This document shows, one piece after another, positions 232 to 63,616 of a stretch of 64,000 nt of DNA. This DNA is from Betaproteobacteria bacterium (GTDB lineage: Bacteria; Pseudomonadota; Gammaproteobacteria; Burkholderiales; SG8-39), in assembly GCA_025356085.1 (NCBI GenBank), contig JANXUV010000015.1, positions 449-64,448 of the forward strand, read 5' to 3'. The translations under genes were made by a program, and so were the position numbers. The notes under the pieces were generated by a model. It did not search any database and was not told where the DNA came from. It was given only the letters and a program-made list of their open reading frames with translations. Every line of letters begins with the position of its first letter. Positions within the stretch are counted from its first letter, which is position 1.

Positions 232-1197
232 CTAGTTGTCGATCTTCGCGCCGGCGTCTTTCACGACCTTCGCCCACTTCGCGATTTCGGAGTTGATCAT
301 AACGGCGAACTTCTCCGGCGTTTCGCCGCCCGCGGTTGCACCCTGCGCTTCCCAGATGACTTTCATCTCCGGCGACTGCAGCGCCTTCAGAGTTTTCTGG
401 TACATGCGATCGAGCGCTTCCTTAGACGTTCCCTTGACGGCCCAGAGCGCGTACCAGGTGGTGACTTCGTAACCCGGCAGCCCGGCTTCCTGCATCGTCG
501 GTACGTTGGGCACGGCAAAAGAGCGGGTCGAGGTGGTTACCGCCAGCGCTTTAAGCCTGCCGCTTTTGATCTGCGGCGCCGAAGTGCTCATACCGTCGAA
601 AGCCATGTCGACCTGGCCCGCCAGCAGGTCCTGCATCATCGGTCCTGCGCCCTTGTAGGGAACGTGCGTCAGGTCGAGGCCGGTCATGGTTTTGAACAGT
701 TCTCCGGCCAGGTGATGGATTGTACCGCTGCCCGCAGAGCCGAAATTCAGCTTGCCCGGATTCGCTTTCGCGTACGCCATGAGGTCCGCGAGCGTATTGA
801 TGCTGGTGTACTTCGGATGGATCACGACCACGTTCGGCACATACGCGAGCACGGTGATAGGGACGAAATCCCTGGTCAGCGAATAGGTCATCTTGGTGTA
901 CAGGCTCTCGGCGATGGTGTGATGCACCGCGCCAAGGAAAAACGTGTAGCCGTCTCCGGGCCGCCTGGCCGCACTCGCCGCGCCGACGGTGCCGCCGGCG
1001 CCGCCGATGTTCTCGACGATGAACTGCTGGCCGATCGATTTGCTGAGGTAAGCCGACAGCGGGCGCCCGAACGCATCGACGCCGCCGCCGGGGGCGAAGG
1101 GGTTGACCATGGTGACCGGCTTTGCCGGCCAGGAAGGCTGCGCGTGGGAAAACGTACCCGCCGCCGCAAGCGCGGCGAATAAAAACGTTTTCAGCAT
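232..1197 (-). CDS. Tripartite tricarboxylate transporter (TTT) substrate-binding receptor, Bug/TctC family
   Basis: ORF 232..1311 trimmed to ATG 1197, which starts the signal peptide MLKTFLFAALAAAGTFSHA. GGAGGAGG lies just upstream on the minus strand. Family-typical PGGGVD and VPYKGAGP segments are present. Confidence 0.9.
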   Translation of the reverse strand: MLKTFLFAALAAAGTFSHAQPSWPAKPVTMVNPFAPGGGVDAFGRPLSAYLSKSIGQQFIVENIGGAGGTVGAASAARRPGDGYTFFLGAVHHTIAESLYTKMTYSLTRDFVPITVLAYVPNVVVIHPKYTSINTLADLMAYAKANPGKLNFGSAGSGTIHHLAGELFKTMTGLDLTHVPYKGAGPMMQDLLAGQVDMAFDGMSTSAPQIKSGRLKALAVTTSTRSFAVPNVPTMQEAGLPGYEVTTWYALWAVKGTSKEALDRMYQKTLKALQSPEMKVIWEAQGATAGGETPEKFAVMINSEIAKWAKVVKDAGAKIDN

Positions 1198-1353
1198 GCC
1201 TCCTCCAGAGGTACTTTTTTTGTGCGGAGGATCATAGCATCGGGTCCGCTCCGGGCAGGCTGCGGCCACATTGCAAAGCAGCATTCGTCCAGCGGGTTTG
1301 TTGCGCGGCAAAGTCTAGAATACGGACCCATTCTCTAGGAGGAGGATCCCGCC

Positions 1354-2379
1354 ATGACCATCAGCAGACGCGCCGTATTGAAGGGCCTTGCCGCCGCGCC
1401 CGCGGCGTTCGCTGTCTCGCGATACGCCGGAGCCGCCGACGCCCGGGTAATCAAGATCTCCCACCAGTTCCCCGGAGGCACGATTGACAGCGGCGATTTT
1501 CGTGACCGGCTCACGCGCAAATTTGCGGCCGAGGTCGAAAAGCGCACCAACGGCTCTTTGAAATTCGAGGTCTATCCGGGTTCGTCGCTGATGAAGACCG
1601 TGGCGCAATTTTCGGCGCTGCGCAAGGGGGCACTCGACATGAGTCTCTATCCGCTCGCCTACGCTGGCGGCGAAGTGGCGGAACTCAATATCGGTCTTAT
1701 GCCCTGCATGGTGACCTCCTACGAGCAGGGCTTCGCCTGGAAAAAGGCGGAAATCGGCCGAGAGTTGACGAAGCTGCTGGAAGCCAAGGGCGTCAAGTTG
1801 ATTACGTGGATTTGGCAGGCCGGGGGCACTGCGTCACGCGCCGCGCCGGTCGTTGAGCCGAATGATGTCAAAGGACTCAAGATCCGCGGCGGCAGTCGTG
1901 AGATGGATCTGATGCTCAAGGAAGCCGGCGGCATTATTTCGAGCGTTCCCTCCAACGAGATCTATCCTGCCATGCAGACGGGATCACTTGATGCGGCCGT
2001 AACGTCTTCGACCAGTTTGATTTCGTTCCGGCTGGAGGAGATTTCCAAGTCCCTTACCTCGGGGCGCGGCAAGAGCTTCTGGTACATGCTGGAGCCGCTG
2101 ATCATGTCCAAGAGCACCTACGACTCCCTCGATCCGGCGCAGCAGAAGGCCGTCACCGAAGTCGGACAGGAGCTGGAGACCTTCGCGACTTCGTCAGCTC
2201 GTGTCGACGACGAAGCGGTCGTCGCGGTCTACAAGAGGGCCGGCGCCAAAGTCACCGACATGGATCAGAATACGGTCAACCGCTGGCGCAAGATCGCGGA
2301 GACCGCCGCCTGGACCGATTTCAGCAAACGCAACGCTGAATGTGAGCGCTATCTGAAAATGGCCAAGGCTGTGGCGTGA
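1354..2379 (+). CDS. TRAP transporter solute receptor, DctP family
   Basis: 341-aa ORF with signal sequence SRRAVLKGLAAAPAAFA and an AGGAGGAGGA SD upstream. It is followed by small and large TRAP permease genes. Confidence 0.9.
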   Translation: MTISRRAVLKGLAAAPAAFAVSRYAGAADARVIKISHQFPGGTIDSGDFRDRLTRKFAAEVEKRTNGSLKFEVYPGSSLMKTVAQFSALRKGALDMSLYPLAYAGGEVAELNIGLMPCMVTSYEQGFAWKKAEIGRELTKLLEAKGVKLITWIWQAGGTASRAAPVVEPNDVKGLKIRGGSREMDLMLKEAGGIISSVPSNEIYPAMQTGSLDAAVTSSTSLISFRLEEISKSLTSGRGKSFWYMLEPLIMSKSTYDSLDPAQQKAVTEVGQELETFATSSARVDDEAVVAVYKRAGAKVTDMDQNTVNRWRKIAETAAWTDFSKRNAECERYLKMAKAVA

Positions 2380-2912
2380 ACGAGCCGGCGCGGGCGGCGG
2401 GCCCGGGCCGCCGCGGCGTGCTGGGTGCGGCGACGCTGCTGCTGCATTGGGTCAACGGCGCGGCGGCCGTCGCTAGCGCAATCGCCGTCGGCGTCGCCGG
2501 TTGCGTGTTGACCTGGGAAGCGACGGCGCGATACCTGTTCAAGATCCCTAGTGAATGGCAGGACGAGCTGTCGATCTTCCTCCTGGTTGGGGCCACGTTC
2601 CTTTCCGCAGCTTGGGTCCAGGAGTGGCGGGGTCACGTCGGCATTCAGGCGCTGAGCGCGATCCTGCCGCCGCGCGCGGACCGGGTCCGGCGTTTTCTCA
2701 GCGATGTCGTGTCGCTCGTCTTCTGCACGTTTTTCAGTTGGAAGTCGTGGTCCTTGCTCATCGAGGCGGTGCATGACGGTCAAATCAGCAATTCGGCCTG
2801 GGGTGCGCCGCTCTGGATCCCTTACGGCTGCATGGCGCTTGGCATGAGCCTGGTCGCGCTGCAACTCCTCTTGCAGGTGCTCTCCCGCGAATCTCTGCGG
2901 CGCGCCACTTAG
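2376..2912 (+). CDS. TRAP transporter small permease, DctQ family
   Basis: 178-aa hydrophobic protein between the DctP- and DctM-type genes. GTG start overlaps the upstream stop (GTGA). Confidence 0.85.
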   Translation: MNEPARAAGPGRRGVLGAATLLLHWVNGAAAVASAIAVGVAGCVLTWEATARYLFKIPSEWQDELSIFLLVGATFLSAAWVQEWRGHVGIQALSAILPPRADRVRRFLSDVVSLVFCTFFSWKSWSLLIEAVHDGQISNSAWGAPLWIPYGCMALGMSLVALQLLLQVLSRESLRRAT

Positions 2913-2914
2913 AC

Positions 2915-4273
2915 ATGACCACGCTCCAACTCGGCCTGCTCTACGGCGGCGCGACGCTCCTGATCCTTTTTTCAGGAATGCCCATCGCCTTTGCGCTCGG
3001 CACGGTGGCAACGCTATTCATGCTCGCGTTCATGCCGCATGCGTCGCTGGACAGCATCACGCAGAACGTCTTCGAAGAGATGGCAAGCATCACGCTGCTC
3101 ACCATTCCGCTGTTTATCCTGAAAGGCGCTGCGATCGGCAAGTCGCGCGCGGGCCGCGACCTGTATTCGGCACTGCATGTCTGGCTGCACAGGATACCCG
3201 GCGGACTCGGCATCGCCGTGACGCTCGCCTGCGGCCTGTTCGCCGCGATGGCGGGCTCGAGCGCCGCGACCTGCTCGGCGATCGGCAGCTCTGCGATCCC
3301 GGAGATGCGCGAGCGCGGCTACTCGGCGCGGCTCTCGGCGGGGCTCGTCGCAGCGGGCGGGACTCTCGGCATCCTTCTGCCGCCTTCCATCACCCTGATT
3401 CTTTATGCGGTCGCCGCCGAGCAATCGCTCGGTCGCTTGTTCCTTGCCGGCATCTGGCCCGGAATCATGCTGGTGGTGCTATTCGCGACCTACGGGATGT
3501 TTCGCTACAACTACGAGCACCGCAGGGCGCTCGCGCATGCCGACGCGGGCGGCGAGCGCGCGCGCATCCTGCAGGTCGACAGCTACACACTGCGCGAAAG
3601 GTTGCTGGCGATTCCTCGTGTGCTGCCCTTTCTCATACTGCTCATCGGCGTGATGCTGGCCCTGTATGGCGGTTTTGCCACGCCCTCCGAGACTGCGGGG
3701 CTTGGCGCCGTGCTTGCGCTGATCCTCATTGCCGTGATCTACGGCGCATGGGGCATATCGGATCTGAAGCCGATCTTTGCCAGTACCTTGTCGGAATCGA
3801 CCATGCTTATGGTGATTGTCGGCATGTCGCTCCTTTACTCATATGTGATGAGCTACCTGCACATCAGCCAGGGCGCTGCCGAATGGATCGTCTCGCTGCA
3901 TCTCTCCCGCTGGGTTCTCTTTGCCGCGATCGTGCTGCTGGTAGTGGTGCTCGGGTTTTTCTTGCCCCCGGTGAGCATCATCCTGATGACGGCCCCGATC
4001 ATCCTGCCGCCGCTCAGGTCCGAGGGCTTCGACCTGATCTGGTTCGGCGTGGTGATGTCCGTTGTAATGGAAATGGGCCTCATCCATCCACCCGTCGGTC
4101 TCAACATCTTTGTCATCAACAAGATCGCGCCCGACATCCGGCTCGGCGACATCATCTGGGGTACCCTGCCGTTCGTTTTCCTGATCATGCTGGCAGTCGT
4201 ACTTCTTTGCGTGTTCCCCGAGATTGCGACCGGCCTGCCTGATCACGTGATGGGCAAGGCGATCGCCCGCTGA
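2915..4273 (+). CDS. TRAP transporter large permease, DctM family
   Basis: 452-aa polytopic membrane protein 2 nt after the small permease, with typical DctM length and composition. Confidence 0.92.
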   Translation: MTTLQLGLLYGGATLLILFSGMPIAFALGTVATLFMLAFMPHASLDSITQNVFEEMASITLLTIPLFILKGAAIGKSRAGRDLYSALHVWLHRIPGGLGIAVTLACGLFAAMAGSSAATCSAIGSSAIPEMRERGYSARLSAGLVAAGGTLGILLPPSITLILYAVAAEQSLGRLFLAGIWPGIMLVVLFATYGMFRYNYEHRRALAHADAGGERARILQVDSYTLRERLLAIPRVLPFLILLIGVMLALYGGFATPSETAGLGAVLALILIAVIYGAWGISDLKPIFASTLSESTMLMVIVGMSLLYSYVMSYLHISQGAAEWIVSLHLSRWVLFAAIVLLVVVLGFFLPPVSIILMTAPIILPPLRSEGFDLIWFGVVMSVVMEMGLIHPPVGLNIFVINKIAPDIRLGDIIWGTLPFVFLIMLAVVLLCVFPEIATGLPDHVMGKAIAR

Positions 4274-25194: not shown

Positions 25195-25307
25195 ACCTTC
25201 AGACGATGCAAGTCGTCTCCCGCTTCACCTCCCTGAGCGGGTTGCCCCGACCCCAAGTCGGGGTGTTTTCCGCCCCCGGTTTAGTTCCCCTTTTCCGGGG
25301 GCTTTTT
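25195..25307 (+). ncRNA. Candidate small RNA (unclassified): three stacked hairpins plus an intrinsic terminator; the 5' boundary is a guess
   Basis: Perfect stems at 25201-25218, 25219-25241 (loop TCACCTCCCTG) and 25245-25263. GCCCCCGG/CCGGGGGC at 25272-25302 is followed by TTTTT. The terminator works only on the plus strand, and no plus-strand gene lies upstream. Confidence 0.4.
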
Positions 25308-25322
25308 ATTCCGGCTCCGGGA

Positions 25323-58024: not shown

Positions 58025-59587
58025 GTGAGCCTGGACGCCGTCGTCGTTGGCGCCGGCCACAATGGCCTGGTCTGCGCCTGCTACCTGGCGCGCGCGGGTC
58101 TCAAAGTGAAAGTGCTCGAGCGACGTGGCGTCGTCGGCGGCGCCGCGGTCACGGAAGAATTTCATCCCGGATTCCGCAATTCGGTCGCCGCCTACACCGT
58201 CAGCCTGCTGCAGGCGAAGGTGATCCGTGAACTGCGCCTGGCGGAGCACGGCTTGCGCATCGTCGAGCGGCCGCTGGCGAATTTCCTGCCGCTCGACAAT
58301 GGCTATCTGAAGGTCGGCGGCGGCCTGGAGGCGACGCAGAAGGAATTTTCGAAGTTTTTCGCGCGCGACGCGAAGCGCCTCCCGCACTACTGGGCCAAGC
58401 TCGAGCGCGTCGCCAACGTGCTGCGCGACGAGGTCCTCGAAACGCCCCCCAACGCCGGGGGAGGGGTTAGGGATCTCCTGGGTCTTTTTCGTTCCGGACT
58501 GAGAATCAAGAAGCTATCCGTTGATGCGCAACGTGACCTGGTCGGGCTCTTTACCCGGAGTGCGGCGGAGTGGCTGGAGGACTGGTTCGAGTCCGAGCCG
58601 GTGAAAGCGGTGTTCGGCTTCGATGCGGTGGTCGGCAATTACGCCAGCCCCTACCACCCGGGCACCGCCTACGTGCTGCTGCACCACTGCTTCGGCGAAG
58701 TGAACGGCAGGCGCGGCCAGTGGGGCCATGCCATCGGCGGCATGGGCGCGATCAGCGAAGCGCTGGCCGCGGAAGCCCGCCGTCTCGGCGTCGAGATCGC
58801 GTGCGACGCGCCGGTGGCGCGCGTACAGCCGGGTGCGGTGACGCTTGCCGACGGCCGCGAGTTCGCGGCGCGCGCGATCGTCGCCAACGTCAATCCGAAG
58901 ATGCTGTTCCTGCAGATGGTCGATGCCTCGCTGCTCGAATCTGATTTCCGCGAACACATGCAGCGCTACAAGTGCGCGTCCGCCACCTTCCGGATGAATG
59001 TCGCCCTGTCCGCGCTGCCGAAATTCTCTTGCCTGCCCGAGGACGGGCCGCACCATGGCGCGGGCATCATCCTCGCGCCTTCGCTCGGCTACATGGATCG
59101 CGCCTACCTGGACGCGCGCGCCTCGGGCATCGCCCGCCAGCCGATTGTGGAAATGGTCATCCCGAGCACGCTGGACGACAGCCTCGCGCCCAAGGGCGCG
59201 CATGTGGCGAGCCTGTTCTGCCAGCACTTTGCGCCCGACGCGGACTGGGGCGGCCGCAAGCAGGAAGCCATCGACCGTATCTTCGACGTGGTCGAGTCGC
59301 ATGCACCGGGTTTCCGGCGCAATGTGATCGCGCACAGCGCGCTCTCGCCGGCCGACCTGGAGCAGGTGTTCGGACTTACGGGCGGCGACATCTTTCACGG
59401 CCAGCTCTCGCTCGACCAGCTCTGGTCGGCGCGTCCGATGCTCGGCCACGCCGACTACCGCTCGCCGGTGAAGGGGCTCTATCTCTGCGGCTCCGGCGCC
59501 CACCCGGGCGGCGGCGTCACCGGCGCGCCCGGGCACAACTGCGCGCGCGAAGTGCTGCGGGATTTCGGCAAACGCATGCCGGCTTGA
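58025..59587 (+). CDS. FAD/NAD(P)-dependent oxidoreductase, phytoene desaturase (CrtI)-like family
   Basis: DAVVVGAGHNGLVCACYLARAGLKVKVLE dinucleotide-binding N-terminus, 520 aa. GTG start 3 nt after the glmS stop. Confidence 0.8.
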   Translation: MSLDAVVVGAGHNGLVCACYLARAGLKVKVLERRGVVGGAAVTEEFHPGFRNSVAAYTVSLLQAKVIRELRLAEHGLRIVERPLANFLPLDNGYLKVGGGLEATQKEFSKFFARDAKRLPHYWAKLERVANVLRDEVLETPPNAGGGVRDLLGLFRSGLRIKKLSVDAQRDLVGLFTRSAAEWLEDWFESEPVKAVFGFDAVVGNYASPYHPGTAYVLLHHCFGEVNGRRGQWGHAIGGMGAISEALAAEARRLGVEIACDAPVARVQPGAVTLADGREFAARAIVANVNPKMLFLQMVDASLLESDFREHMQRYKCASATFRMNVALSALPKFSCLPEDGPHHGAGIILAPSLGYMDRAYLDARASGIARQPIVEMVIPSTLDDSLAPKGAHVASLFCQHFAPDADWGGRKQEAIDRIFDVVESHAPGFRRNVIAHSALSPADLEQVFGLTGGDIFHGQLSLDQLWSARPMLGHADYRSPVKGLYLCGSGAHPGGGVTGAPGHNCAREVLRDFGKRMPA

Positions 59588-59614
59588 CCTTCCTATGATG
59601 GGAGGGTCCAATGT
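59584..59614 (+). promoter_or_regulatory. MerR/CueR-type promoter-operator of copA (TTGACC - 19 bp - CAATGT)
   Basis: 19-bp spacer carrying the imperfect dyad GACCTTCC-N6-GGGAGGGTC (7 of 8 arm positions complementary). It closely resembles the E. coli PcopA CueR box TTGACCTTCC...GGAAGGT. Confidence 0.6.
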
Positions 59615-59623
59615 GGCGCCACC

Positions 59624-61909
<2,286 letters not shown>

Positions 61910-61911
61910 CG

Positions 61912-62358
61912 ATGAGAAAACGCCAACTGCCGCTCGAACATGCCGATGCGCTCGTGCGGGGCCTGCTCGACATCGGGCGCACCTCGAAGGAAAGCGGTGT
62001 CTCGGTGAAGATGATCCGCCACTACGAGGCCATCGGGCTGCTGAAGAACGTCGCCCGCACCTACGCCAACTACCGCGTCTACTCGGACAAGGACGTGCAC
62101 ACGCTGCGTTTCATCAAGCGCGCTCGTACGCTCGGTTTCTCGATGGACGACGTTCGCGAACTGCTGGCGCTGTGGGAGAACAAGTCGCGCCCGAGCGCCT
62201 CGGTGAAGAAGATCGCCGGCGGTCACATGCAGGACCTGAAGCGGCGCATCGTCGAAATGCAGTCCATGGTGGCGACGCTGGAGCACCTGACCCACAACTG
62301 CCACGGCGACGGCCGGCCCGACTGCCCAATCCTGGACGACCTGGCGCATGCCGCTTGA
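61912..62358 (+). CDS. cueR: MerR family Cu(I)-responsive regulator (CueR/HmrR-like)
   Basis: SGVSVKMIRHYEAIGLL...YRVYSDKDVHTLRFIKRARTLGFSMDDVRELL and the C-terminal metal loop CHGDGRPDCPI. A GTG at 61954 would give the more usual length. Confidence 0.88.
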   Translation: MRKRQLPLEHADALVRGLLDIGRTSKESGVSVKMIRHYEAIGLLKNVARTYANYRVYSDKDVHTLRFIKRARTLGFSMDDVRELLALWENKSRPSASVKKIAGGHMQDLKRRIVEMQSMVATLEHLTHNCHGDGRPDCPILDDLAHAA

Positions 62359-62385
62359 CTCTCCCACCATGTCAAGGTCGATACT
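62355..62385 (+). promoter_or_regulatory. Second MerR/CueR-type promoter (TTGACT - 19 bp - GATACT)
   Basis: Same architecture as the copA promoter, with about 29 of 43 ungapped positions identical by hand alignment. The -35 overlaps the cueR stop codon, and the right half-site AAGGTC is present. Confidence 0.55.
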
Positions 62386-62394
62386 GGCTGCACC

Positions 62395-62505
62395 ATGAAA
62401 ACTTGCTGCGAACTTGCTTCCTGTGCTTGCTCGCGGTGGGCCCTCAAGTCCGTCTGGAGCCGCTTAGCCTGCCTGTGGCGCCATGACCTGAGCCGCCTCG
62501 GCTGA
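62395..62505 (+). CDS. Hypothetical Cys-rich 36-aa small ORF (MKTCCELASCACSRWALKSVWSRLACLWRHDLSRLG)
   Basis: Its ATG lies 9 nt after the -10 of the second CueR-type promoter, the same geometry and the same CACCATGA context as copA. It ends 11 nt before the SD-less cupredoxin gene. Below the ORF-track size cutoff. Codon third positions are less GC-rich than the neighbouring genes. Confidence 0.25.
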   Translation: MKTCCELASCACSRWALKSVWSRLACLWRHDLSRLG

Positions 62506-62516
62506 CGCGAAACACC

Positions 62517-62951
62517 ATGTCGAGAATCGCGATCCTGGTTCTGACGCTGGCGCTGGCTGGCGGTGCCTGGGCGCGCGAGGACTTCGGCCGTCCGGGCGAC
62601 CCTGGCGAGGCGACGCGCACCGTCCGCATCGGTATGGCTGACACCATGCGCTATTCACCCTCGGAACTAACGGTCCAGCGCGGCGAGACGGTGAAATTCG
62701 CCGTCGTCAACAATGGCAAGCAGAAGCACGAGATGGTGATCGGCACGATGAAAGAGCTGAAAGCGCACGCTGAGATGATGAAGAAGCATCCCGGCATGGA
62801 GCACGACGAACCCCACATGGTGCACGTCGCGCCGGGCAAGAACGAGACCCTGGTCTGGCAGTTCACGAAGGCGGGTACCTTCTATTTCGGCTGCCTCGAA
62901 CCGGGACATTTCGAGGCCGGCATGATTGGAAAGGTGAAGGTCGTCAAATGA
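62517..62951 (+). CDS. Periplasmic cupredoxin-fold copper protein (CopI-like)
   Basis: Signal peptide MSRIAILVLTLALAGGAWA. Type-1 Cu ligand pattern H...C-x4-H-x4-M (FGCLEPGHFEAGM). His/Met-rich stretch KAHAEMMKKHPGMEHDEPHMVH. Confidence 0.8.
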   Translation: MSRIAILVLTLALAGGAWAREDFGRPGDPGEATRTVRIGMADTMRYSPSELTVQRGETVKFAVVNNGKQKHEMVIGTMKELKAHAEMMKKHPGMEHDEPHMVHVAPGKNETLVWQFTKAGTFYFGCLEPGHFEAGMIGKVKVVK

Positions 62952-63226
62952 GAGCCGTATTCAGCGCCGTTCTCCTTGCGCTCACGTTACCGTCCCTCGC
63001 GCAGGCGCTGGCCGACGGCGAGGTCCGCAAGATCGACAAGGCGGCCAGGAAGATCACGCTGAAACACGGCAATATCCAGAGCATCGACATGCCGCCGATG
63101 ACCATGGTGTTTCAGGTGAAGGACCTGGCCTTGCTCGACAAGGTGAAACCAGGCCAGAAGGTGAAGTTTCAGGCGGAGATGATCGGCGGAGCGGCGACCG
63201 TGACGCAGATCGAGCCGGCCAAATAG
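62948..63226 (+). CDS. cusF: Periplasmic Cu(I)/Ag(I)-binding protein, CusF family
   Basis: Signal peptide, the segment KITLKHGNIQSIDMPPMTMVFQV (compare E. coli CusF ...WPEMTMRF...), ATGA overlap with the upstream gene. Confidence 0.82.
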   Translation: MRAVFSAVLLALTLPSLAQALADGEVRKIDKAARKITLKHGNIQSIDMPPMTMVFQVKDLALLDKVKPGQKVKFQAEMIGGAATVTQIEPAK

Positions 63227-63241
63227 GCATAGAATCGCTGC

Positions 63242-63616
63242 ATGCTGTCGCGCTCGACTATTCGCAGAATCACGCGGTCACTGCTGGCGACGATGCTGTT
63301 CGCGCAAGGCGCACTCGCTGCGAGCGTGTGTGACATGCCGGAGCGTTCTGCGGCAAAGGCGATCGCGTCTGGAGCCATGCCCTGTCATCAGACGGCGCCC
63401 GCGGAGCGCAACGCGAATCTATGCCTTGCCGATTGCCTGAGCTTCGACCAGAGCACGGATACGCCGCAGCTTCCCGCGCTGGCGCCTTATCCGGCGCCGA
63501 TGCTGGTGGTGGAGATCGCGGCCCCCGCGCTGCCGCGATCCGAGTTTGCGGGCCACTGGCTCGCCGCCAGCACGGCTCCACCGCCCCGAATACTGTTCCA
63601 GTCCCTCCTGATCTGA
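63242..63616 (+). CDS. Hypothetical secreted Cys/His-containing protein (possible CzcI/CusD-type metal-efflux accessory protein)
   Basis: 124 aa with predicted signal peptide ...LLATMLFAQGALAASV and four Cys (CDM, MPCHQ, CLADC). Lies directly upstream of the outer-membrane factor gene. Family could not be assigned. Confidence 0.55.
   Translation: MLSRSTIRRITRSLLATMLFAQGALAASVCDMPERSAAKAIASGAMPCHQTAPAERNANLCLADCLSFDQSTDTPQLPALAPYPAPMLVVEIAAPALPRSEFAGHWLAASTAPPPRILFQSLLI

Follow-up and report, generated by a model that had tools for sequence, protein, structure and literature searches.

A conserved small reading frame behind a CueR-type promoter at the head of a betaproteobacterial copper-efflux operon

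A small open reading frame (sORF) of 36 codons lies between the copper regulator gene cueR and a gene for a CopI-like cupredoxin in the 64,000-nucleotide stretch of contig JANXUV010000015.1 of a Betaproteobacteria bacterium (the window, from here on). Comparison with related loci identifies the sORF as a conserved protein-coding gene under purifying selection, belonging to a family that is new to Pfam, NCBIfam, PDB and the searched literature. The sORF is very likely a genuine, translated gene that depends on CueR. Its product is best read, with a probability that we put at roughly 50%, as a small Cu(I)-binding cytoplasmic peptide that would be induced by CueR and act in trans as a buffer, chaperone or modulator. 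The sORF, its parts and the two promoters that bear on it are located as follows.

59584-59614, + strand: CueR-type (MerR-type) promoter of copA, with -35 TTGACC (59584-59589), 19-bp spacer and -10 CAATGT (59609-59614)
62355-62385, + strand: second, duplicated CueR-type promoter (that of the sORF), with -35 TTGACT (62355-62360), 19-bp spacer (62361-62379) and -10 GATACT (62380-62385)
62395-62505, + strand: sORF of 36 amino acids (aa), member of a conserved small-protein family (from reading of the ORF, homologues and selection tests)
sORF residues 1-14: Cys cluster (C4, C5, C10, C12)
sORF residues 15-35: predicted amphipathic helix with W21, C26 and W28-R29; C-terminus R-L-G

The sORF runs from an ATG at 62395 to a TGA at 62503-62505 and encodes the peptide MKTCCELASCACSRWALKSVWSRLACLWRHDLSRLG, with five Cys and one His. 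Reading of the DNA bears out the coordinates, length and composition given in an initial annotation of the window, which had been made from the sequence alone. That annotation also cautioned that random frames of this size are common, and this is indeed the case: 67 ORFs of at least 30 aa can be counted in 6 kb of this GC-rich DNA, so that length alone is no evidence for the sORF, which rises above the chance level because it is conserved in relatives. A further argument against coding, that the GC content at third codon positions (GC3) is notably low, does not hold up, since the sORF value of 0.75 lies within the spread of the neighbouring genes (0.82 +/- 0.07 in windows of 36 codons, 19% of which are equally low). 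An exact-protein look-up of the peptide returned no record.

Related loci were read as DNA in 14 distinct cases (15 with L173, a near-duplicate of L172; contigs and loci carry L numbers here), and one more contig was read as a gene table only. Across the 14 distinct nucleotide sequences, stop codons number 0 in the frame of the sORF (+0), 34 in frame +1 and 8 in frame +2. The ratio of nonsynonymous to synonymous changes (pN/pS) is lowest in frame +0, at 0.46 and 0.51 in the two subgroups of the family, versus 0.70-1.64 in the other five frames, and most pairs of sequences have a corrected omega of 0.14-0.34, with synonymous divergence (dS) reaching ~1.5. Minimum changes per codon position are enriched at position 3 (30/15/31, p=0.04, and 45/39/68, p=0.01). 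The positions of start and stop are conserved across dS up to 1.5, and all length differences (36, 37, 41, 42 and 45 aa) are in frame. Frameshifts and stops in relatives, named beforehand as the finding that would speak against a gene, are absent from frame +0, and the coding reading stands. Antisense frame -1 likewise has no stop in any member, but with a pN/pS of 0.70-0.72 and unconserved ends it is rejected as a real gene; its openness is that of the usual shadow frame. An explanation by RNA structure is also rejected, the leader of the window folding no better than shuffles (z = -0.97) and the fold of the alignment having an unfavourable covariation term and many broken pairs. Rfam has no match at the sORF leader.

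The homologues comprise ~30 distinct sequences of 36-45 aa in metagenomes, all from uncultured betaproteobacterial-type contigs; the family appears rare, and short ORFs are under-called. Contigs with 66-80% identical cupredoxins (L086, L087/L088, L090 and L091) carry a homologous short frame in the same place, while five contigs with an identical cupredoxin are 100% identical across the region and therefore carry no information on conservation. Most of the cupredoxin homologues have betaproteobacterial or Burkholderiales labels. When the family profile is run against 5.8 billion proteins, only the 36-45-aa sequences emerge as homologues, with E-values from 6e-19 to 6e-7. From 1.84 billion representatives, scanned exhaustively with HMMER, come 13 short clusters and four long matches. 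The long ones are all repetitive, and three of them (P0129, P0134 and P0137, RCC1-type or similar) are rejected as chance matches to W...GQLG. The family is divided into two subgroups. Members of 36-37 aa, including that of the window, follow M(K/N)(T/S)CC(E/D)....(C/A).C(S/T)...LWNRLACLWRN.LSQLG, and members of 41-45 aa follow MxCxxCL..AP....LPHAAKALW..FARAWR.AL..LGQLG. Invariant or nearly so across the family are M1, the N-terminal Cys pair, the Trp-Arg pair of the helix and the terminal Gly. The Cys pair takes the form MxCxxC in most members and CCxxxxCxC in the window peptide. The peptide had been proposed to be thiol-rich, which is true of the window's subgroup (5 Cys in 36 aa) and not of the family, where only the N-terminal Cys pair is kept.

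Sequence profiles of Pfam, NCBIfam and PDB match no family member that was scanned, and DUF2946 of Pfam is not matched even at E<=10 among the 24 members scanned. A tblastn search of the plasmid collection gives no real match. The sORF is found in none of the 80 GTDB species-representative loci with a cupredoxin homologue, which are mostly uninformative for the frame because the cupredoxin gene there mostly follows a multicopper oxidase gene. No description of a CueR-regulated leaderless small protein of this kind was found in the searched literature.

The sequence at 62355-62385 has the features by which MerR/CueR promoters are defined, namely a -35 box, a 19-bp spacer with an imperfect dyad, a weak -10 box and an adjacent cueR gene. 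It aligns with 59584-59614 in front of copA (TTGAC(C/T), 19-bp spacer, -10), where the spacer holds the dyad GACCTTCC...GGAGGGTC, and the ATG lies 9 nt past the -10 box in both copies, in agreement with the earlier proposal that the promoter is duplicated and that the sORF ATG is placed like the copA start. The duplication extends 5' of the -35 box (GCATGCC(G)GCTTGAC, 59570-59589 and 62341-62360), and the stop codon TGA of the upstream gene lies inside the TTGAC of the -35 box in both copies (59585-59587, and 62356-62358 for cueR). The genes that stop in the -35 boxes are one for a 520-aa oxidoreductase (...MPA*) and cueR (...HAA*), and the overlap between the cueR stop and the -35 box recurs in most relatives. 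Only the promoter and the start context are duplicated: nucleotide similarity ends right after ATG(A), and derivation of the sORF peptide from the 5' coding region of copA is rejected. A generic sigma-70 scan of the region calls no promoter; as it permits only spacers of 16-18 bp it misses this one, and its result is not evidence against a 19-bp MerR-type promoter. Copper induction of the sORF would follow naturally from a promoter of CueR type.

With +1 placed from promoter geometry, at the usual 6-nt gap from the -10 box, the predicted transcription start of the sORF is A62392, leaving a putative 3-nt leader (ACC-AUG). Promoters of the family follow a CTTGACC(Y)TCCC-N-GAGACT-type pattern (the search pattern being CTTGACCYTCCC-N-GAGACT-N6/9-ATG), and the ATG lies exactly 6 or 9 nt past the -10 box in 13 of the 14 distinct loci. 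Such a fixed spacing lends weight to the suggestion in the initial annotation that the sORF starts at the leaderless position equivalent to that of copA. The 6-nt spacing is that of the 42-aa subgroup and of the first ATG of L167, and the 9-nt spacing that of the 36-aa subgroup. We infer that transcripts of the 6-nt class are truly leaderless, the A of AUG being +1, and that those of the 9-nt class, to which the window belongs, have a 3-nt leader. The start region of L167 reads ATGATG and covers both start positions, which suggests a one-codon shift between the subgroups. For copA, the ATG is 9 nt past the -10 box (59609-59626 in the window, L088:42-85 and L167:803-846), with a predicted leader ACC-AUG. 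Around 482-630 of L166 and L171, the called start of CopA is ~100 nt too far downstream, and an in-frame near-leaderless ATG adds a Cys-bearing N-terminal extension to CopA, MK(S/P)T...GSGCGCASLKGTS(K/Q)C. Leaderless mRNAs of metal genes, with a 5' untranslated region (UTR) of <5 nt, are documented in Cupriavidus metallidurans of the Burkholderiales (merP, copJ and czcI2; PMC7563307). The type of host, the link to metal resistance and, by prediction, the length of the 5' UTR are alike; the difference is that starts in C. metallidurans were mapped experimentally, whereas those considered here are read from geometry, and none of the C. metallidurans genes belongs to the sORF family.

Of the 14 distinct loci, 11 have the sORF directly after cueR, as does the contig read as a gene table. 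Two loci, L090 and L174, have the sORF and its promoter together behind another gene. L087/L088 have lost the promoter by deletion, and the sORF ATG there shares nucleotides with the cueR stop (ATGA); frame and peptide are kept all the same, which is difficult to account for if the product has no importance. Next after the sORF comes a gene for CopI in the window, L086, L087, L167, L169, L090 and L091, CusF in L166 and L171, a DUF4396 protein in L170, and a 110-130-aa CxxC protein ending in RPPLxx (CutF/CruR-like) in L168 and L172-L176. All contigs that reach far enough, L081 included, have periplasmic copper proteins in the operon and then a CusCBA-type pump with an outer-membrane efflux protein (OEP) and a resistance-nodulation-division (RND) component. 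The next start is 9-13 nt past the sORF stop in 7 of the 14 distinct loci and ~90 nt past it in L172-L175. A strong Shine-Dalgarno (SD) sequence (GGAG or GAGGAG) precedes the downstream gene in about half (L086, L087, L166, L167, L169, L170 and L171). In loci that lack the sORF, various junctions are seen: the cueR stop overlaps the cupredoxin ATG in L089, the cupredoxin ATG is within ~2 nt of the cueR stop in L019, and L093 keeps a slightly degenerate CueR promoter with an SD-less cupredoxin ATG 18 nt past the -10 box, an arrangement that is similar and by eye more degenerate in L092.

Structure prediction with AlphaFold2 gives low confidence to residues 1-14 of the window peptide (disordered) and a helix over residues 15-35 (mean predicted local distance difference test score, pLDDT, of 62), while one 42-aa member is essentially a single helix over residues 11-41, with pLDDT of 79-85 over residues 21-40. 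With a hydrophobic moment of 0.39-0.60 at a mean hydrophobicity near 0, the helix is amphipathic, and the peptides are basic, with a net charge of mostly +2 to +6. The amphipathic pattern is kept over the entire helix. No signal peptide or transmembrane (TM) segment is found by sequence, as there is no hydrophobic N-terminal stretch and Cys occurs at residues 3-6. The spacing from the Cys pair to the C-terminus varies over 31-39 residues, and that from the Trp-Arg pair to the C-terminus differs by three between the subgroups, an indel that leaves the phase of the helix intact but would place an arrest motif differently with respect to the peptidyl-transferase centre.

In the reading that we favour, the sORF would be the first cistron of a CueR-activated operon in the order sORF-copI-cusF-cutF-like-cusCBA. 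As cytoplasmic Cu(I) rises, CueR would remodel the promoter with the 19-bp spacer, whose -35 box overlaps the cueR stop codon, and transcription would begin 0-3 nt before the ATG, so that the 5' end would be ACC-AUG in the window and AUG itself in the 42-aa subgroup. The leaderless or near-leaderless mRNA would presumably be initiated by 70S ribosomes without a Shine-Dalgarno sequence. The product would be a cytoplasmic peptide of 36-45 aa with a flexible N-terminus carrying the Cys pair, a cationic amphipathic helix with an invariant Trp and, beside it, a near-invariant Arg, and a Q-L-G end. Its thiolates may bind Cu(I), and its helix may dock on the inner membrane face or on a partner, with CopA, the RND pump or CueR as candidates. 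The peptide would be made alongside the efflux machinery, the periplasmic copper proteins and the pump. In the window, the ribosome that terminates on the sORF probably also feeds the SD-less copI start 11 nt on, as a secondary and lineage-specific effect; such coupling cannot account for the conservation of amino acids, because about half of the relatives have good SD sequences and some have spacers of ~90 nt.

In its workings the sORF would come nearest to a small protein of a copper regulon or to a copper uORF (upstream ORF), and by the traits compared here it falls outside each of the named families. Members of the 42-aa subgroup open with a literal M-x-C-x-x-C that reads like the Cu(I)-binding motif of CopZ, Atx1 and HMA domains (PF00403), although its M is the initiator, and the sORF is predicted to be expressed alongside a Cu(I) ATPase under a Cu(I) sensor. 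Unlike these, the peptides match no HMA hidden Markov model, are half the size, lack the ferredoxin-like fold (~65-70 aa) in favour of a predicted single helix, and are basic rather than acidic; the window's subgroup moreover has CC (MKTCC) and not CxxC. MymT of mycobacteria is a small copper-inducible Cys-rich peptide, and CopY has the cluster motif CxCxxxxCxC. The sORF product resembles them in being small, cytoplasmic and, by prediction, induced by a copper sensor, and the CCxxxxCxC of the window recalls polythiolate Cu(I)-cluster motifs. In contrast to MymT and metallothioneins, the family keeps two Cys, and most of what it conserves is taken up by a Trp/Arg amphipathic helix, an element absent from metallothioneins. 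A high content of conserved Cys, the mark of a metallothionein, is not seen (5 Cys in 36 in the window, only 2 across the family), and no sequence homology was found. MntS of E. coli, a 42-aa protein thought to act in trans on a metal exporter, is similar in size and in being a regulon member of a metal sensor, and differs in metal, direction of regulation and sequence, as well as in the predicted leaderless start of the sORF.

Several observations weigh against a Cu(I)-binding peptide that acts in trans. The M of MxCxxC is merely the initiator, and the resemblance to the HMA motif may be superficial. The Cys pair is the only thiol feature found family-wide, members of 42 aa hold 2-3 Cys, and P0131 has lost the second one; a single CxxC per 42 aa is a costly buffer. 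A gap of 9-13 nt to the next start in half of the loci, together with the position as first ORF, would also fit a role in cis. A 3-nt leader may be translated poorly if the rules of E. coli apply to this organism. The relatives are without exception from metagenomes or metagenome-assembled genomes (MAGs). Some close relatives whose loci are otherwise similar (L089, L092 and L093 from metagenomes, L019 from GTDB) lack the sORF, which is therefore an accessory gene; it is gained or lost cleanly among relatives. Finally, L170 carries a canonical 65-aa HMA (CopZ-like) gene at 771-968 (- strand) and an HMA-type CopA at 1062-3299 (+ strand) as well as the sORF, which is therefore not simply a replacement for CopZ. 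A more specific version of the favoured reading, which is tentative at best, takes the peptide to be neither buffer nor leader and instead a new part of Gram-negative copper efflux. The family would then be a hitherto unrecognised class of minimal, single-helix proteins that handle Cu(I) on the cytoplasmic side of the membrane, with a truly leaderless CueR transcript as their mRNA. Possible roles for such a protein would be Cu(I) hand-over to, or gating of, CopA or a CusA-type RND pump, or feedback on CueR.

The main rival to a peptide acting in trans is a cis-acting copper-sensing leader peptide, in which the N-terminal Cys pair would sense Cu(I) while the C-terminal W-R...Q-L-G-stop sits in the ribosome tunnel. 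A ribosome that pauses or terminates slowly would then adjust how the efflux genes further on are translated or transcribed, as happens with CruR and CutF. Copper-sensing upstream ORFs (uORFs) with CxxC motifs are established: CutF-like proteins and CruR (also CopL, CusD and SilD) are exported proteins of 100-150 aa with a proline-rich or RAPP arrest motif at a fixed spacing from CxxC (PMC9426467, PMC9973294). The sORF family shares with CruR (DUF2946) and CutF-like ORFs a short Cys-motif frame upstream of copper-homeostasis genes on the same strand; translation of such ORFs matters for what follows, and would do so for the sORF. The sORF is first in the operon, with the close spacing to the next start noted above. 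Its conserved residues cluster towards the two ends, in the Cys pair and in W-R/Q-L-G, and the stretch between them varies, and 36-45 aa corresponds to about one tunnel length. Measured by the traits used for assignment to the CutF-like/CruR-like group (drawn from PMC9426467 and PMC9973294), the family has the Cys motif and the position (a Cys pair, then CopI, CusF or OEP genes), and no signal peptide or Nin-Cout TM segment. No PP or RAPP-type arrest motif is present: PP near the C-terminus occurs in none of the 26 aligned members (P0133 has a single Pro in its last 15 residues), and the C-terminus is Q-L-G. The sORF differs further from CruR and CutF-like ORFs in length (36-45 aa), in being cytoplasmic by sequence, in the missing match to DUF2946, and in its place as the predicted leaderless first codon-run of the CueR transcript. 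Its spacing from Cys to C-terminus is variable and includes the W-R indel of three residues, whereas spacing in CruR is fixed within 1-2 residues (PMC9426467). Also against a leader peptide are the lack of a conserved downstream RNA hairpin or terminator, intergenic spacers too short for an attenuator, a downstream gene that differs among loci, amphipathic periodicity conserved over the full helix, and a separate CutF/CruR-like gene that is already present before cusC in these operons (63242-63616 in the window). Taken together, these points make a cis-acting leader rather unlikely.

A pure ribosome-delivery ORF is a still weaker candidate, and we regard it as improbable. On this view any short frame would do: 70S ribosomes that enter at the leaderless 5' end and terminate on the frame would reinitiate at the cupredoxin start, which lacks an SD sequence, and the peptide would have no function of its own. 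The window is where this idea arose, and the facts behind it are as first described: the cupredoxin gene has no SD sequence (the region before its ATG at 62517, cgcgaaacaccATG, lacks a purine-rich one), shares the start context CACCATG with copA and the sORF, and begins after a gap of 11 nt from the sORF stop. L090 is alike, with an SD-less next gene that starts 9 nt past the stop, and a conventional ribosome-binding site would not fit on the mRNA. However, purifying selection on amino acids runs along the frame, with near-invariant residues; half of the downstream genes have strong SD sequences, the gap reaches ~90 nt in L172-L175, and in L092 and L093, which lack the sORF, copI lies directly behind the same promoter. 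Delivery of ribosomes to the cupredoxin gene, as first suggested, is thus possible as a local by-product in the window, and has no family-wide basis, given that the downstream gene varies and about half of them have a good SD sequence. That the sORF is not a gene at all (a frame open by chance in a GC-rich 5' UTR, a leader that acts as structured RNA, or a shadow cast by a gene on the antisense strand), as the abundance of chance frames, the open antisense frame and the fact that the sORF is uncalled in the NCBI copy of the MAG might suggest, is very improbable in view of the conserved start and stop, the lowest pN/pS in frame +0, the lack of an Rfam match, favourable fold or covariation, and homologues found by protein profile at E-values down to 6e-19.

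Copper homeostasis of Gram-negative bacteria is considered well mapped, with CueR, CopA, CopZ, CueO, CusCFBA and, recently, the CutF/CruR sensor uORFs. If the sORF is what we take it to be, a conserved 4-kDa protein that is the first product of a CueR promoter and escapes both gene callers and family databases would extend this scheme by one component, and the locus would offer a clean natural case of a metal-regulated leaderless mRNA outside actinobacteria and archaea. It also illustrates how comparison of sequences can lift a 36-codon ORF out of the many chance frames that a GC-rich genome holds. General importance is limited until function is shown, because the family appears rare.

The genes around the sORF in the window are as follows.

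59624-61909, + strand: copA, Cu(I) P1B-type ATPase with YHS and HMBD N-terminal domains and without an HMA domain (domain matches)
61912-62358, + strand: cueR, Cu(I)-responsive MerR-family activator (TIGR02044, 154.8 bits against a cutoff of 147.4)
62517-62951, + strand: CopI-like periplasmic cupredoxin with signal peptide, SD-less (domain matches)
62948-63226, + strand: cusF-like periplasmic Cu(I) chaperone, start overlapping the copI stop (ATGA)
63242-63616, + strand: CutF/CusD/CruR-like exported protein of 124 aa, with signal-like N-terminus, CLADC, and PPP in the last 15 residues (by the criteria of PMC9973294)
63685-64000, + strand: 5' part of a cusC-like OEP gene, running past the end of the window

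In the identical contig L081, the cusC-like protein is complete at 428 aa and a further gene follows, truncated where the contig stops; in L082, a nearly identical contig, the gene after the cusC-like one encodes CusB/CzcB-type adaptor domains. The gene for the 124-aa CutF/CusD/CruR-like protein lies directly upstream of the outer-membrane factor gene, and besides the sORF the operon may carry a nascent-chain copper sensor before cusCBA. Unannotated genes of this type, encoding 110-124 aa, stand just 5' of the outer-membrane factor gene in the window and at L166:4608-4982, L171:4536-4871, L170:4486-4848, L175:868-1224, L176:937-1269 and L168:1504-1869. Their products have a signal-like N-terminus and either CxxxC (CLADC) or CxxC (CSVCASCC). 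Two types can be distinguished at the C-terminus: that of the window has PPP within the last 15 residues and the end ...APPPRILFQSLLI, and the other ends in RPPLxx-stop and gives weak matches to DUF2946 (E=0.0055 and 0.096).

Two minor observations concern other genes. An extra gene for a protein of 163-170 aa lies between copA and cueR in L166 (3025-3537) and L171 (3040-3531), overlapping the cueR start; it has no confident Pfam match (weak DUF4079, E=0.04). Across the window no tRNA genes were found, and the sole match to an RNA family, one that fits a host of Burkholderiales type, is the anti-hemB small RNA of Burkholderia (Rfam RF02837) at 25216-25310 on the + strand, which scores 65.6 bits against a gathering score of 49.5.

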